This document shows, piece after piece, positions 33,390-41,618 of a stretch of DNA of 64,000 nt. The notes beneath the pieces were generated by a model. It made no database searches, was not told the DNA's origin, and worked only from the letters and a program-made list of their open reading frames with translations. A program made the translations under genes and the position numbers. Numbering within the stretch: position 1 is the stretch's first letter; every line of letters starts with the position of its first letter. The stretch comes from Diplonema japonicum (taxonomy: Eukaryota > Protista > Euglenozoa: Diplonemea): contig OZ025693.1 of NCBI GenBank assembly GCA_964019335.1, forward strand, positions 186,001 to 250,000, read 5' to 3'.

Positions 33390-33435
<46 letters not shown>

Positions 33436-36400
33436 AACTTCCCCGTACCTTGAACGGCGTCGACGAGGCGACGAAGGATCCGACAGGAGCAACGCCAGGT
33501 TCCAATGAAACTCGTCATCGGAAGCATGGATCTCAGGACTCTGCCCAACAACAGTGGTGCCCTGATGATTATGATATTATTGTATTTCCCCTCCCTTTCA
33601 TACTTCCTCCAAATCCTCGTCTTCTTCCTCTATTTCCTCCAAGATCTGGAATTGAGGGCTTGTCTTCAGGTAACTGAAGAAAGATTTAACCTGGTGTTCG
33701 TAATAGCCTGATATAGCGATCACTACGCTGTCGGAGGCGATGTACTTCGAAAGAAGTTTTTTCTTTTCGGAGCTGAGCCGTGACGCGAAAAGACGTGCGT
33801 CGAATCCGTCAAAGGAGGTCGCGACCCTCTCAGGCTCCAGTCGGATGTAGTTCTTGATCGACGCGATCGCTTCGTTCCGTTCACGCTTAGCCTGATCGGT
33901 CTCGAGGTATTTCTTCCGTTTGCCTTCAGTGCTCATGGTGCCAATGCTGCCCCTACCGCACGCATATAACATCATGGACCTTTCCAGCATTTGAAAGAAC
34001 GCCCCTGCGTATGTTGTGCGGATCAACATGTAGAACCCTGATATCAACAGTTTGAACTGTTGTAGAGTCAGCCCCGTGAGGCAGCTCGTCACCGTTGCCA
34101 AGGGGCCATCGTCGAACTCCTCAAGAAGTTTGATGATGTGGTCCTTCGTCGGTGTGACGATCATGGTTTTGTTTTGCACTGTGATGCTGATCACTGCTAG
34201 TTCGGTTCCCTCGGTCTCACCGTCTTGGGGTGGTTTGAACCCAAGCCTGCCGGACCACAGAATGCGGAGTAACAACGGAAATAAACAGTGTCGTGGACGT
34301 GAACCCTTTACGATCTCTTTCAATGAGAAGGACGACAGGTCGCTGGCAAGCTTGAGGAACAACCGGTACCCGATACTGATTTTGAACTCTGCGAGGAGGA
34401 AATGCACTACCTGGTTCAGCCTGTTCTTTCCCTTGAAGATTCTTCGTAGAGCGTCGACGAGCTTTGTGTTGTGGTGTTCGTCGCAAACTTCCTCGACGGT
34501 GGCACGAAGTTCATCGCAGACGTCCACACCGGGATCGCAGACTTTTCCCGTCTTGTCGGAAGTTTTCACGGGCAGGACAACACGTTTTTTCAACCTGCTT
34601 AGTACGATGTCAGCTGTTTCGTCAGTGATGTCAGACATGTGAAGAACTTTTCTATGGTCGTTCATCAAAAGGTTCGTCATGCATATTACAAACCTCTGTC
34701 TGACCTTGGGAAGCATGAATGTTGAGTCGAATATGTGGTACATTTCCTCGGTGGGGATGTCCTTTGATGCGGCTTCGAAGATGTTCGCGATGACCTTCTC
34801 GCCCGCCAGCATTCTGATCTGCTCGATCAGCAAGCGTAGTTCCTGGCCGGAGAGAGACGACGTGAGTCGGAGCAGCTGTTCGTCATTTGTCGCAGCTTGT
34901 TTGAACGCCGCTTCGCTCTCATAGTCGATGGCGAGTACTTCGTCTTGAAGAGTGATGCAATGCGACACGAATCTATCTACCATTTGATCGCCCCAATCGC
35001 ACAGCCCTGCTTCTTTGAAACTATCGTTGCTTTCCTCGTTCAGATTTTCCACGGCTTTGTCGAAAACGCGTTTGTTGAACGTTGCAGCTGTGTGAGCCTG
35101 CAGCCTCAAGATGAGCTCCTGAAGTTGCGGTTGGTCCAGCGCAGCGCATTTTGTGACGAGGCTCTTGTACCCCAGCACCCCTGCGATCCAATCCTTGCTC
35201 TTTTTGTGGATGTTGACTCCTTTGAAATCCTTGACTCTTGCCATAAGCTTCTCTTTGTCTTCATAGTCAAAGATCATATCAACGTCAAAGCTTACAATAT
35301 CGTCAGCGACTGAATCGAAGACTCTACCGGCGTAAGAGTTGCTGTATGCTGCCTTGATGCCAGACATGACCATGCGGATTCCTTCCGCATCGCAGAGTTT
35401 AAGGTCTTGGATGAGTTTGGAGTCGGACCCTATGGTGTTTTGTATTCTCTTCAGGATGGCTGATTTCGACATGTTGTTGACCTCGTGTTGCAGGAATTGT
35501 TTCGACACGCATGAGAATTTCTGCCTGTTGTTGAACGCGTGAAGCATCACCTCCAACGACGGGAAGTTGCTCAGCTTGTTCATCATAGTGTTCTTTGCTG
35601 TTCTTGCCGTCCTTGTCGCGCTTTCCAATGCCCCTAAAGATGGTATCTTATGAAGCTCGTCGGGCGTGTCCATCCATTGATCCAACATTCGTTTTCCGAG
35701 CGTTCCCTTCTTCAGCCTGCCGATGAGCGCGGTGACTTGGGAGTGGGATTTGTCCTTAAATGCCGCGCCGACCTCGTCAGGGAAAACAGCTAGCAGCTCA
35801 TCCTTGTCGAGGAAATGTTCCGGGAACTCGCCGGTTACTTGGTTCACCTTTGCAAGCACCATGCATCTTAAATCATCGTCGTCACCAAGAACAAGGTCAA
35901 GGTCCATGTCGCAGGTTGTGTCTTGGACAGACTTCATGAGCTCCAAGGTAGGGCTGCTTTCGATGAAGAATTTGCTTGAGCGTTTGAGGATGCTTCGTAC
36001 CTTGCTCTCGCTCAGGCTTGTCAGCGTGTTGCGCATTGTCTTGCAGGAACATGCTGCGATGATGTTCTCTATTTCACAATTTTGCGGCAGCGATCCCAGC
36101 TTTCGCATCTCCGAAATGAACACGTCCACCTGGTCCCTCGACTCCACAAAGTCCAAGGCGTTCAGCCCCAACTTGTCCAACGCTTCTTCAAACTGTGTGA
36201 ACAGTTCCGTGAAGCACATCTTTCCGATTCCTTCCATTGCTATCCTGTACGGGATGTCGTTCATCTGTTTCTTAAACTGCCTCCCGCAACCCTTTGCGAT
36301 TCCTAGAAGGTCTTGGTAGCTCATCTGCCAAGGATCCTTCCCGGTGCCCTTCACCTCCAACATCGAGAGGAATTGCTTTCTTTTCCCGACGTCCTTGATG

Positions 36401-39400
36401 GTGTCGAGAAGGTCTTGCGGGAGGTATTTCTCTACGTTGAAGGGGTTCGCTCCGTTTTTCAGGCCTTCGACGATGTTTATTGCTGGGTCGAGCATTTCCT
36501 TGTACTTTTCAAGGTCTTGGACCCGTGAGATCACCGTTTTGCCGATTTTTGTTTTCTCGGCCTCTGCTTTGATCTTCTCGACGGCGCCACCGAACTCGTC
36601 GTCTACGCGTTGCATGAGGCGTTTCAGCTGTGCGGCCTCAGGCCCTGTAGGGTCCTTGAGGGCATTGGTGATGGCATCTGCATTGAAACCATTCACACCT
36701 AGCGTCTCCATTTTCTTGACCAGCTCTGGCTGTTCCCCACGCAGTAAGGAGTCTTTGATGGCCGCACGATCATCAGCTTGCTTTTCCGCTTCTTTTGCTG
36801 CCTCTGCTACCGCGATCTTCAGTTGCTGTTTGAACTCGGAGATCTCCTCTGTTATCTTGTCCTCGCACCCCGCCACCATCTCGTCCATCGTCGCTGCCTT
36901 TGCCCCGTCGGACCCCCGTGCAGACCACCATGCTTCCAGACTCTCAAGTTCATGCATAACAGCAGTGTATTTGTTATGCAACCATTCTGTTTTGGTATAA
37001 TCTAAGTACCTGGTCAGAGCGTTGCCCAGGGATGTGGTAAGAGCGACCCATGCTCCTATGTTGTAGGCCCTCAGCTGTTCAAAGGTGGCCAGAGCTGCCA
37101 ACGCAGTGCCCAAGGCACCCAGGGCGTAGATGGTGAGCGTGATACCGGTCTTGTATTTGTCGTACCGAGCAGCATCTTTATTGTAGGCTGCCACTTTGGG
37201 CGCCAGGCGCATTTTTACGTACTCTGCGATGGTCAGCTCCGAGTAGCCATCGTCCCCGTACTTCGTGATTTCAACAGGAGGCACGGAACCTTTGTACTTA
37301 GGGATGGAGTTCTCGCTCATCTCGCTCTGTACCAGCTCTTGTGTAAACGCCGTCAGCTTGATGTGCAGAAGCTCCGATCTTGTGCCGTACTGCGGCACGT
37401 CGCCGTTCGCCTCATCCTTTTCCGACAGATTCATCTCTTTCCGTTCCTTCGAGCGTTTAGCCGCCAACCGCTTCTCCGACGCCTTCTTGATCTCCTGGTC
37501 GGAGTACATCCCGGAGCGCGTTCTGTACATGTAAATCTCAGAAAGCAAACCCTCTGCGGCTGACTTCAAACTCACCCACTTGGCGCCAGCGTTGATCTTG
37601 TTCGTGATGGACTGCATGAGGGAGACTGCGATGGGGAGCACGACCACAACGATAGAGAGTGCCGCGTACAACTGCGAGACCACGCTGGTGTCGCCCCCCG
37701 CCCACTTGCGGGAGCCGGACTTGTTCTTGCCGTCGGTCTCGTCTTGCCAGGTCAGCTGGAGAAAGGTCTGTAGAATTGAAATAGCAGTAGCAAGACTCCC
37801 AAGCACCAGGATCCACATCATCATATTGCGGTATCGCCGTTCATTGGCGCGGGCTAGCTGGCTCCAAGCTGCGTAGCTCTCCCAGGCGCGGTTCAGGATC
37901 TCATCGCCGCTGATGGCCTGCTGGATGAGCCGTGTGAAGGTCTCAGGGACCAGCCCCTTCCGGACGAGTTTCCACTCACCTTCGTAGATAATCTGCGCAG
38001 TAGAGCTGTCGACGTTCGAGAGGTACGACTGGTAGTCGTCCTTCGACGCTGTCCCGCCTGACCTTTCTTCAATCTTTCTGATGAGCGACGCGAGCTCGTC
38101 AGCATACCCCCCAGAGCCCTCGATGATGAGCAGCGGCCACTTGTTCTGGACGAAAGGCAGAATGTCGAACTTCGCCGATTTCAAGTCGCCGCCGATGAGA
38201 ATACCCACCACGCGTGCGCCTTCTCTTTTAGGGTGTGCTGTTCCCCGCCCACCTTCACTGGCTGCCTCAAGAATCCGGAGTACCGTGGTTGAGATGTCCT
38301 TCGCGGTGCATTCACAGCCATCAGTGGCCTCCATGGTAGGAACCCCACCATCAGTAGCAATCATGCGTTGTTGCTTATGCAAGAGGATGTGGTGGCTGAA
38401 CCATTTGGTGACCTCTCTGCCGTTGGTGCGCATGAAGGTTTCGACACTGCCCTCCTCGAATCGCTGGATGTTGATTACGGGGACCCTTCCGGTGGCGATG
38501 GGGATGTAGTGGTCAGGGTCATTGAGATCGCGGACTTCGCCTGCAGCCTGCGTACCTTTAGCAAGGGCGGACTTGATGTCCCCTGTGTCGGTGTTGATGA
38601 TGACAGCTCCTTTGGTTTTGGCAGCTGTGACAATCGACCGTGTGATGTACTGCTTGATGAACTTAGCAAGGTCGCCGATGGTGAGAAGTGATCCGTCCTC
38701 ATCGCCGGCGTCGATGATGTTCTGCAAGTTGTCTTCTTCATCAGCACCCGCTATGTCTGCCAGTCCGTGCTTGTCCAGCTGGCGCTGCTTTTTCCGTTTT
38801 TCGTCTTGCAAGGACGTTACTTTTTCCTCTTGGGCGAGCTTTTCAAACCGCGCGTTTGTTTTCAACTCGTGTTCTTCCTCGCTGCTGGAGTCCTCTAGGA
38901 GGGGTTTCGTAGCCTTCCCATCTTCCTTCTCTTTCTTCTCCCGGTTGTGGCGATGCTTTAAAAACGTGTGGAGCCTTCCATCCATGTCGACTTGGTCACC
39001 TATGAGCTTCCCTCGTTTTTTCGAGGTAGCGTCTTTGTGCAGCATTCTCTTGAAATCCACACGGCCGATGATGCGGATGACACCACAGGGGCCTTTGTCG
39101 GATCGGTCGAAGAGGAACTCGCCTGTGCACGGTTTGCCTTTAAGTGATACTGGATCAGAGGTTATGTAGGAGCACCATGGTGTGTCGGTCAGGCGATGGT
39201 CATAGTATACTACCTCTTTCTTCCAAAGTCCTGTTTTCACGGTTCCGGTCTGCTGGATGAAGCCAAGTTTTCGAAGGATGTCCTCACCTCCCTCGAAGGT
39301 GCTCACCTCCAGGCACTCCCCAAGTTTCATGGAACCTGTAATGTCGGCCATTTCAACAGTGACATCGCCTCTTCCTACAGGCTCGCGATACACCATCGCG

Positions 39401-39456
39401 TCCCACCCTCTCGGGGCTTCGGGGTCATCTTCCATCTTTCCCTTTGCAGGGAGCAC
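33276..39456 (-). CDS. Giant SLOG(LSDAT/TRPM-type)-SLATT-SLATT membrane protein with helical-repeat tail (~2,030 aa); 3 exons (introns 33562-33603, 33391-33448)
   Basis: AAKTKGAVIINTDTG, FSHHILL, VVGILIGG and WPLLIIEGSGGYADELA match TRPM MHR1/2. Two 2TM modules followed by KWVSLKSAAEGLLSEIYMYRTR and YVKMRL...Y, as in DUF4231/SLATT. Confidence 0.8.
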
Positions 39457-40011
39457 CCCAAGGGAAGGGATGGTGGGAGGCCTTTTTTTTTTTTTTTTCT
39501 TTTTTTTTTTTTTTTAGAAAAAAAAATTTTTTTTTTCTACGCAAATAGTTCATTGTAAAAAAAAAAAATTCGATAAAGTTTCAGTGTGCATGGGGGTGCT
39601 CACTGTCTTAAAAAAGAAAAAAGAGAGTGACCAAGTGCGAGAAAGTGTAAAAAAAAAAAGGGGGGAGGTGCTTTTTTTTTTTTTTTTTGAGAATTTGATA
39701 AGACTCGAGGTTAGCAAAAAAAAAGGGGGGCTTTTTTTCGAACCCATGTTAAGGAAGATGTTCCCCCCGCTCCCATCACTTTCTGAGCAAAAAAGCTTCG
39801 AAAGAGAGAAAAAAAAAAAAAGAAAGGTTAACAAAGAGATGAGATAAAGGAGGTTCCTGTTTGGAACGTCCCCCTTGCCTCTAACAAATATACGAGTTAA
39901 AGTGTGGTTAGACTAAAAAAAAAACAAAAAACTCGGCTTTACGTTAGTTATTTTTTGGAAAAACCCATCGAAGATAAAAAAAAATAGAGAAAAAAAAAAA
40001 GAATAAATAAA

Positions 40012-41391
40012 TCACAACATCAAGAAACAACCCACCGCCACAGCAAGACCCCCAACAGCGAGCTGCGCCGTAAAAGTACCGTCTTTCTCTTCTTTTTCTT
40101 CTTCTTCTTCTTCTTCTCCCCCTTCTTTTTCATCAAAGATCATCCCGAAAAACTTTTCGGTTTCATTATCCTCACCAATCTTATCTGCGGCCAGTTTGAC
40201 AGTGTCTAACTTATGCAGTTTTTCAAGCAAAGTTGATCCTGTTGAAAGTATTGGGTTTTTGTCGACGCTGAGAGTGTGGATGGACGAAAAAAAAGGTGTC
40301 TCGATAGCCATCTCGAGAGCCGTCTGCCCACCGGCGCTCGAAAGGGTAAGATCGAGGTCAGGATGAAAAAGCAGAAGATCATACGAAGAGCCCGGTTCGC
40401 TGTGCGATTTAATATAGCCCATCAAGGCTGTGTATCCGATCTTCGACTGTATGTTCGGGTCCGCCCCTTGACGGAGAAGGATTTCTGTACATGGGTCGTG
40501 TTGCTCTTTACAAGCGATCATCAAAGCGGTCATCCCTTGCTTGTTGACAAGGTTGAGGTTACATTGAAGTGTGTCCGAAAGGTACTGCAGGGTCTCACAT
40601 TTACCTGACGAGGCTGCTGTCATGCACAAAGACCATTTTATGGGGTTATCTTGAGTGTTGAAGTCGTAAGTAGAGCGAATGGAATCGGTGACCATTTTAA
40701 AAATTTCGATGTTGGTGCCTTCGGCTGCAAGACTGATCGCGGTCTTCCCGTTGTTGCTGTTTAAAGTCGGGTCAGCACCATGTTCAAGAAGAACCGCCAC
40801 GATTGACTGAGAGTTACGTTGGATCGCGGTCATTAAGGCGGTCCAGCCCCGCTTGGATTTAACATTAACCACGGCACCGAGTTCAATTAATTTCTCGATG
40901 AACTCAGCGGATGCTTCCATTGCAGCATGCATCAAAACTGTCATTCCGTTCGGAGACACGTGGTTAATCTCTTCTGGGAACATGTTAAACACCTCAATTT
41001 GTTCGCATTGAGCAGCAAAGCCGTATATGCTTATGTGGCAGTTCATCTCTGTCTCGGCGTTCTTGTAGAGTTCGAAGAGTGCCATGTCGCCTTTTCTCAC
41101 GGCCATCTCCCAACCCCAGCTCGTTTTTGGGGCGGTTCTGATCTCCAGCTCCTTCGTCGCCATCATTTTTCTGCTTGGTGTCACGCTTACCTCGGACCCT
41201 TGCGTCACCCCTTCGGCGGACAGAGTTTGCGACCTTTCTAAGTCGCTGCCTTCAAACCCCATTACCAACCATCCTTCGTCTAGCCCCGCAGCCGATTCTA
41301 AAAGCTCCAATACCTTACCCACTGTGTCTTGTTCTGTAATCTCCAAGGATTCGGGTAAGCTGGTTACTTTGGTGGAGAAGAATATGTCCAT
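40012..41391 (-). CDS. Ubiquitin-like + ankyrin-repeat protein with C-terminal tail anchor
   Basis: Ubl fold (DTVGKV..LSAEGVTQGSEV); about 6 ankyrin repeats (GWTALMTA, GMTALMIA); terminal hydrophobic helix. Confidence 0.85.
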   Translation of the reverse strand: MDIFFSTKVTSLPESLEITEQDTVGKVLELLESAAGLDEGWLVMGFEGSDLERSQTLSAEGVTQGSEVSVTPSRKMMATKELEIRTAPKTSWGWEMAVRKGDMALFELYKNAETEMNCHISIYGFAAQCEQIEVFNMFPEEINHVSPNGMTVLMHAAMEASAEFIEKLIELGAVVNVKSKRGWTALMTAIQRNSQSIVAVLLEHGADPTLNSNNGKTAISLAAEGTNIEIFKMVTDSIRSTYDFNTQDNPIKWSLCMTAASSGKCETLQYLSDTLQCNLNLVNKQGMTALMIACKEQHDPCTEILLRQGADPNIQSKIGYTALMGYIKSHSEPGSSYDLLLFHPDLDLTLSSAGGQTALEMAIETPFFSSIHTLSVDKNPILSTGSTLLEKLHKLDTVKLAADKIGEDNETEKFFGMIFDEKEGGEEEEEEEKEEKDGTFTAQLAVGGLAVAVGCFLML

Positions 41392-41618
41392 TTTTTTTTT
41401 TTTTTCTTTTCCCCGTCCTTTAAATCGATGCGACCTGACTTTTTTGGAAAGATTTAATACCCGAAAGACTTTAAGAATGAGAAAGAATAAAACAGAACTT
41501 AAAAAGAAAACGAACAAAACAAAAAACAAAAAAAGAGTCAGCTGCCTGTTGCTCATGCACACTGCCACGGATAACATTAAAAGAAAAAAGCCATTTTCTT
41601 TCTTTTGTCTCAAGCAAA

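Follow-up and report, generated by a model that had tools for sequence, protein, structure and literature searches.

The occurrence of the SLOG domain in TRPM channels and its bacterial origin have already been described (PMC13143021, PMC7306681). SLATT domains are predicted nucleotide-responsive pore formers (PMC9503650, PMC7159879), SLATT is a required part of DRT10 (bioRxiv 10.64898/2026.04.29.721553), a SLATT effector works with TIR in Shaseng (bioRxiv 10.1101/2024.12.27.630466), and SPIKE1, located at the central pair of the ciliary tip in Tetrahymena, provides a precedent for a non-immune protist LSDAT protein (PMC11642885). Here we analyze a gene that combines such domains in one chain. 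It lies in a 64,000-bp stretch of the Diplonema japonicum genome (contig OZ025693.1, positions 186,001–250,000), further referred to as the window; all coordinates are given relative to its first letter. The main open reading frame (ORF), 39435–33598 on the minus strand, encodes 1,945 amino acids (aa) if unspliced, and about 2,019 aa once two small introns near its 3' end are removed. The protein belongs to a family of euglenozoan proteins, called here the long forms, in which the glycine-rich loops and the aromatic clamp of the nucleotide pocket are degenerate and conservation is highest in the SLATT units. The core probably derives from a sensor-pore protein of bacteria that is linked to TIR.

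The order along the protein is SLOG/LSDAT, DUF4231, SLATT_1, a coiled coil and a helical-repeat tail, with four predicted transmembrane (TM) helices. The initial annotation, made from the letters alone, had proposed a SLOG-SLATT-SLATT fusion, and all eight motifs that it quoted are found in this single ORF (e.g. LLIIEGSGGYADELA at 38133–38089; the last SLATT motif occupies 36867–36844). Its domain calls hold. The two SLATT-type units exceed the Pfam cut-offs, with E 4e-10 and 40.5 bits against 24.7 for DUF4231 (PF14015, aa 528–648, TM1 and TM2 inside) and E 9e-12 and 45.6 bits against 26.3 for SLATT_1 (PF18181, aa 739–864), the latter being also recognized by NCBIfam (NF033634, 43.9 bits against 41). 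The SLOG part was not confirmed at the profile level: LSDAT_prok matched aa 407–454 with E 6e-4 and 19.6–21.7 bits, under the cut-off of 25.4, which is passed by some homologues (e.g. P0020 at 31.1 bits). As had been claimed, there is no six-TM TRP pore: Pfam and NCBIfam scans of the protein yielded neither such a pore nor any ion-channel family, and the hydropathy profile contains three hydrophobic peaks (TM1, aa 541–559; TM2, aa 589–607; TM3, aa 765–783) and one polar helix. This helix, TM4 (approximately aa 794–812), is under the hydropathy threshold and is predicted from the full-length SLATT_1 match and a helix in the structural model. The feature had been ended at 36800; the protein runs approximately 1,050 aa further, through the coiled coil and the repeat tail.

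An AlphaFold2 model of aa 101–912 was built from a 94-row alignment (predicted local distance difference test score, pLDDT, 86; predicted template modelling score, pTM, 0.82). In this model SLOG is an alpha/beta domain spanning approximately aa 110–510 and broken by a charged insertion of about 120 aa. It matches zebrafish TRPM2 MHR1/2 (7aov) with Z 17.3, root-mean-square deviation (rmsd) 4.0 and 228 aligned residues in VIA; the TRPM structure 6bqr with Z 19.1, rmsd 4.4 and 236 residues; Tetrahymena SPIKE1 (9nw3) with Z 18.0, rmsd 3.5 and 205 residues; and the SLOG domain of ThsA (7uxs) with Z 11.6, rmsd 3.9 and 172 residues. Across the TRPM, LOG, ThsA and DprA chains, Z ranges from 9 to 19, and for TRPM MHR1/2 alone, from about 15 to 19. 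Among solved structures the SLOG fold is nearest to TRPM MHR1/2, the Z of SPIKE1 being tied with those of the TRPM chains. Given these structural matches of the model, the SLOG call is sound despite the Pfam score below the cut-off. The SLATT part produced only generic helical matches to solved structures (Z≤9.2) and nothing in the viral library at E≤0.001. The architecture is real and exceeds what chance would produce.

To assess the pocket, motifs were counted at anchored positions of a 119-row alignment (A1) of 44 long forms and 75 short forms; the anchors match the strands of the model. These counts were used instead of column-wise conservation, which is noisy in the insertion-rich half of SLOG. 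Three motifs occur in none of the 44 long forms: the first-strand loop G-[GSA]-[AS], present in 53/75 short forms, the second-strand loop [DTS]GG...G (59/75), and aromatic-G-x-E (59/75), which aligns to TRPM2 Y295, the clamp of ADP-ribose. The helix start G[VILA]M is retained in one long form and in 51 of the short ones. When the bacterial profile is aligned with TRPM2, a conserved Trp falls on Y295 and the glycine loops are common to both; these loops may be tentatively assigned to named pocket elements. TRPM2 R302 and R358 have no counterpart in long forms; since the bacterial consensus lacks them as well, they make no fair test of pocket loss. The initial annotation had assumed an intact nucleotide sensor and had named a degenerate ligand pocket as half of what would speak against its proposal. 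Such a pocket is seen here: none of the 44 long forms has the three motifs common to TRPM2 and the bacterial LSDAT domains.

The SLATT units show the opposite pattern. Identity to the Diplonema ambulator orthologue is 84% over aa 380–900 and equals 82% and 91% in the two SLATT units, 72% in SLOG and 62–72% in the tail. The SLATT units top the identity ranking for most deeper orthologues as well. Of the columns conserved in bacteria, the long forms keep 21/26 in the first SLATT unit, 7/7 in the linker and 23/32 in the second. The TM1–TM2 loop, longer in long forms than in short forms, carries an N-x-S sequon in the window protein; N-x-S/T sequons occur in this loop in 18 of 44 long and 7 of 75 short forms, a hint that the loop may face the lumen or the outside.

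The tail model (aa 870–1945; pLDDT 84, pTM 0.82) is a nearly all-helical body. In profile-profile comparison of ten hand-cut tail units, 6 of 45 pairs exceeded 90% probability, reaching 96%, while 15 column-shuffled controls stayed below 1%; the tail is therefore an array of diverged repeats of approximately 85–100 aa. No family from Pfam or NCBIfam matched it, and no match was found in Foldseek at E≤0.001 or in the ESM Atlas; the best VIA Z was 5.3, and a PDB profile search gave no convincing match. The fold searches used the 1,076-aa model, in which a small known fold of a single repeat could escape detection. The tail profile matched 53 proteins, all of them long forms or their fragments, and had no matches in six frames of 80 bacterial loci (see below). 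Contigs of a relative differ from the tail at 44 sites; of the 40 that are listed, 31 are synonymous and 9 are non-synonymous. One repeat (35326–35568, minus strand) has a weak RST-domain score below the cut-off (E 0.019), which is a lead only; similar weak scores were observed in P0004 (E 7e-4) and the fragment P0007 (E 0.006) and in none of 24 further homologues.

A word search identified 15 long homologues, and a search of representative proteins, 983 proteins at E≤0.001, of which 150 were listed. The homologues of the long form come from transcriptome assemblies. The named ones belong to diplonemids, euglenids and kinetoplastids: D. ambulator, D. papillatum, Flectonema, Lacrimia, Artemidia, Namystynia, Eutreptiella, Entosiphon and Bodo saltans. 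A further long form is the EukProt entry 'PhM_4', presumably a basal kinetoplastid. Members are automatically named SLATT proteins in UniRef, and one D. papillatum paralogue bears the automatic name 'trpm'. No trypanosomatid orthologue was named among the 4 proteins from a word-limited search with the Bodo query. Two phylogenetic trees were built, the first for 84 rows (14 of 98 were dropped, 9 long and 5 short), the second for all 119 rows of A1 under a simpler model. In both, a single branch separates long from short forms with Shimodaira–Hasegawa-like approximate likelihood ratio test support of 100. In the subtree of the window protein, diplonemids cluster together with Bodo and PhM_4 (support 87–95), beside euglenid sequences. 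Artemidia, Eutreptiella and Bodo are among the several cases of two deep paralogues per species. The tree resembles old vertical inheritance and fits the presence of the long form in the euglenozoan ancestor. ESM Atlas contains eukaryote-rich clusters, the commonest phylum being Haptophyta, of proteins of approximately 900–1,080 aa that combine SLATT_1 with DUF4231 and in some clusters also contain LSDAT; these are unaligned leads, from which eukaryotic fusions probably exist beyond Euglenozoa. Long-form variants include P0023, whose N-terminus bears a ubiquitin-like domain (E 1e-13), P0008, whose C-terminus weakly matches a PDZ-like domain (E 0.014), and P0122 of 4,116 aa. A literature search on LSDAT, SLATT and SLOG with eukaryotic or euglenozoan terms found no description of the long-form family; eukaryotic LSDAT-SLATT fusions may be listed by Burroughs et al. 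(2015). That work, the source of the SLOG and SLATT family names, reportedly predicts that bacterial LSDAT-SLATT proteins are conflict-system effectors.

Bacterial LSDAT_prok-DUF4231-SLATT_1 proteins of approximately 600 aa have the same domain order as the long-form core. When 46 proteins from further down the list were scanned, 43 had LSDAT_prok and SLATT_1 above the cut-offs, mostly at 550–850 aa, and the remaining three were long forms or fragments. In the species-genome scan, 503 stretches encoded relatives; the best 80 of them belong to Myxococcota, Chloroflexota, Acidobacteriota, Verrucomicrobiota, Thiotrichaceae, Bacteroidota and Actinomycetota. The same-strand downstream ORF could be obtained at 64 of these 80 loci, and in 14 it is directly next and contains a TIR family domain. 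A profile built from these 14 genes found TIR-like matches in 26 of the 80 loci, 15 being the next same-strand gene; this profile is circular for its 14 seed loci, and adjacency was counted without a genome-wide background. One alignment column has Glu in all 14 TIR genes; we take it to be the TIR catalytic residue. Five of the TIR genes were scanned at full length: three are TIR-WD40, one is TIR-FGE and one is TIR only. Histidine kinases and transporters also recur as neighbors. The bacterial module would thus comprise a TIR signal, an LSDAT sensor and a SLATT effector, and the kinship with prokaryotic conflict-type modules that had been suggested for the D. japonicum protein is borne out by its homologues and their TIR neighbors. 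PADLOC produced no match for the window protein and one weak match among 8 proteins; most bacterial homologues were missed too. Viral contigs searched with one bacterial homologue contained no relative.

Several further loci and proteins deserve mention on their own. TIR-WD40 genes immediately following LSDAT-SLATT, possible sensor-enzyme partners, are L007:9087-11852, L013:8964-11819 and L019:8961-11885. A 2,070-aa ORF with five TIR-like stretches, L080:9651-15860, lies downstream of a bacterial LSDAT-SLATT gene. Other fusions, among P0143, P0058 and P0170-P0173, are nSTAND1-LSDAT-DUF4231-SLATT, double LSDAT, and long LSDAT with WD40. Stand-alone bacterial LSDAT genes of approximately 250–370 aa, containing the SLOG part only, were observed in L043, L045, L046, L068, L070, L071, L073 and L074.

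Since the SLATT module is under strong selection, the pocket motifs are gone and a new tail has been added, we read the long form, with a probability of about 0.45, as a domesticated, channel-like protein with four predicted TM helices, whose SLOG is a pseudo-sensor and whose control comes from the tail or from partner proteins, not from a signal of the ADP-ribose type. In the bacterial ancestor, SLOG would have read a nicotinamide adenine dinucleotide (NAD) derivative made by TIR and opened the SLATT hairpins. The module may have entered the euglenozoan ancestor, or have been retained in it, and then duplicated, SLOG turning into a structural or allosteric module. In the present protein, SLOG, the linker and the tail would lie on the cytosolic side and the TM1–TM2 loop on the luminal or outer one; the SLATT units would oligomerize and change membrane permeability, and the tail would bind partners that anchor or gate the protein.

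Several observations weigh against this reading. Not all of the pocket is gone: [GN]G following strand 5 persists in 44/44 long and 70/75 short forms, and xG[ST][GK] in 39/44 and 59/75, respectively. The latter motif is followed by a new aromatic residue in 38/44 long forms and 5/75 short ones. The side that likely clamps adenine is lost and the likely phosphate side kept, and with half of the pocket conserved and a new aromatic added, the ligand may be a different one. Even in the bacterial LSDAT, ligand binding is presumptive. In type VII Thoeris, SLATT alone mediates the response to cyclic ADP-ribose (bioRxiv 10.64898/2025.12.03.692087); hence decay of SLOG need not stop nucleotide gating. 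The hydrophobicity of TM3 and TM4 is weak. Of the 44 long rows, 32 were assigned as long forms by length, tail and tree position. Both trees are unrooted and exclude the haptophyte look-alikes, so the direction, donor and number of transfers cannot be read from them. Finally, great age and conservation do not speak against an immune function of a gene.

The strongest alternative, which we consider unlikely though deserving serious attention, is that the protein is still a nucleotide-gated effector: an altered SLOG, or a pocket between SLATT subunits, would sense a NAD-derived or other nucleotide, and the membrane would be permeabilized in antiviral or stress cell death, the tail being a sensor or inhibitor. 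The TIR neighbors of the bacterial homologues (14/64 loci directly downstream; 26/80 with TIR-like matches) and the retained part of the pocket agree with it, as does the action of SLATT without SLOG in type VII Thoeris and Shaseng. In addition, expression of a SLATT gene shifts under a virus-resistance treatment in the haptophyte G. huxleyi (bioRxiv 10.64898/2026.09.30.755861). It is opposed by the loss of three pocket motifs in every long form, by the old paralogues with slow change within the orthogroup, and by the window itself, which lacks TIR and whose protein has no PADLOC match. The absence of TIR-like matches from six frames of the window says little of a partner elsewhere, since adjacency is not expected in a eukaryote. 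Direct support for the innate-immunity or cell-death role put forward in the initial annotation was not found: no TIR gene is present in the window, the neighbors are of housekeeping type, and the tree is like that of an old vertically inherited gene. Altogether, that annotation was right about the parts and the bacterial kinship, was probably wrong about the intact sensor, and missed half of the protein.

Rather unlikely is a non-conducting anchor, in which the SLATT hairpins would embed and oligomerize while SLOG and the tail tie the membrane to the cytoskeleton or an organelle (pellicle, flagellar pocket, feeding apparatus or a contact with the endoplasmic reticulum). A conserved helical repeat array making up half of the protein, a family common to three euglenozoan groups, and the structural ciliary-tip protein SPIKE1 among the tied top SLOG matches would suit such a role. 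Yet the SLATT units, including the polar and charged residues of the family, are more conserved than a plain anchor requires, and SPIKE1, at 346 aa unlike the long form, does no better than tie with the TRPM chains. Of similarly low probability is an undescribed euglenozoan channel class derived from bacterial immune SLATT hairpins, that is, a one-chain receptor-channel analogous to TRPM, with SLOG-SLATT coupling kept and the ligand changed, whose repeat array would sense giant-virus or stress cues and trigger a membrane breach. A relic intermediate toward TRPM channels is very improbable, and the protein is a weak guide to the origin of the TRPM N-terminus that it had been suggested to inform: despite the fold similarity to MHR1/2 and the paralogue named 'trpm', TRPM keeps the bacterial pocket motifs lost by the long forms, TRPM2 is matched by the bacterial profile at E 4e-28, the best TRPM match has E 0.0045 with the window sequence and 1e-9 with the long-form profile, a TRPM-type protein scores far better with the bacterial SLOG profile (E 2e-35) than with the euglenozoan one (2e-11), and the long form has no TRP pore. 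A wider sampling of TRPM sequences gave one TRPM-type protein among 5 matches.

The features of the gene are listed in the table. Single contigs from two DNA-like runs cover nearly the whole ORF (X2, 33445–39232; X6, 33445–39471) with no listed differences inside it; hence the ORF is not an assembly artefact. In run X1 of a related organism, one contig omits 42 nucleotides (nt) with GT-AG ends over the apparent stop codon. The three-exon C-terminal end aligns to the end of the transcript-derived D. ambulator protein with a score of 71, reached by none of 500 shuffles. The gene thus likely has two short 3' introns, as far as contigs and alignment indicate.

Table. Features of the long-form gene in the window (P0001; aa numbers refer to the unspliced product)
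Feature	Position	Strand	Basis
Main ORF / exon 1, 1,945 aa if unspliced	33598..39435	-	ORF call; one-contig cover in two runs
GT-AG intron, 42 nt, removes apparent stop codon	33562..33603	-	X1 contig joint; ends and frame
Likely exon 2	33449..33561	-	contig data; frame and alignment
Predicted GT-AG intron, 58 nt	33391..33448	-	X1 contig alignment ends at 33449; no joint listed
Predicted exon 3 with stop codon; spliced product 2,019 aa	33276..33390	-	end-alignment to D. ambulator protein
SLOG/LSDAT-fold domain, aa ~110-510, pocket remodelled	37906..39108	-	AlphaFold2 model; structure matches; motif counts
Charged helical/disordered insertion, aa ~125-250, right after first SLOG strand	38686..39063	-	alignment; low pLDDT
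First SLATT-type unit (DUF4231), aa 528-648	37492..37854	-	Pfam; TM1 37815-37759, TM2 37671-37615
Second SLATT unit (SLATT_1), aa 739-864	36844..37221	-	Pfam, NCBIfam; TM3 37143-37087, polar TM4 ~37056-37000
Long helix / predicted coiled coil, aa ~847-898	36742..36897	-	helix 747-798 in model
All-helical tail, aa ~1000-1935, diverged ~85-100-aa repeats	33631..36438	-	model; repeat comparison

No paralogue of the gene was found within the window. By Pfam scan, its neighbors encode eIF2A, a ubiquitin-ankyrin protein, an autophagy E2-like protein, RasGEF and others. In the adjoining ORF (40012–41577, minus strand), ankyrin repeats come after a weak ubiquitin-like match. In the upstream intergenic region (39550–40000) contig depth is very high in all three runs, which suggests a high-copy repeat.

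The long forms provide a clear example of a probably bacterial sensor-pore module that has settled across a eukaryotic phylum. TRPM offers a parallel, with this sensor family joined to a different pore. If the SLATT units conduct, they would form a new type of eukaryotic channel in abundant marine flagellates. The bacterial pairs of TIR and LSDAT-SLATT, in turn, offer a testable model for the first ligand of TRPM MHR1/2.

Compared with known systems, type I Thoeris ThsA (SIR2-SLOG) has the SLOG fold in common with the long form, at the Z given above; its SLOG is of a different family, and its effector is a NADase, not a membrane unit. SPIKE1 has the LSDAT fold in common, placed in a structural setting in a protist; for its 346-aa chain no SLATT match is reported. 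TRPM channels are alike in the SLOG/LSDAT fold and differ in the six-TM pore, NUDT9-H and the TRPM2 residues Y295, R302 and R358, which have no counterpart in the long form. Type VII Thoeris ThsH and Shaseng resemble it in having a SLATT effector with two TM helices downstream of a TIR signal, and the predicted assembly of ThsH in the membrane is filament-like; no SLOG is described for these effectors, whereas the long form fuses two SLATT units to SLOG and a tail, with no TIR partner seen in the window. The bacterial LSDAT-SLATT proteins are shorter (approximately 600 aa), have intact pocket motifs and often adjoin a TIR gene. The euglenozoan long form has lost three of these motifs, gained large insertions in SLOG and added approximately 1,050 aa, while it has in common with the bacterial LSDAT_prok-DUF4231-SLATT_1 proteins three domains in the same order, 27–33% identity over approximately 480 aa, and the core residues of SLATT.

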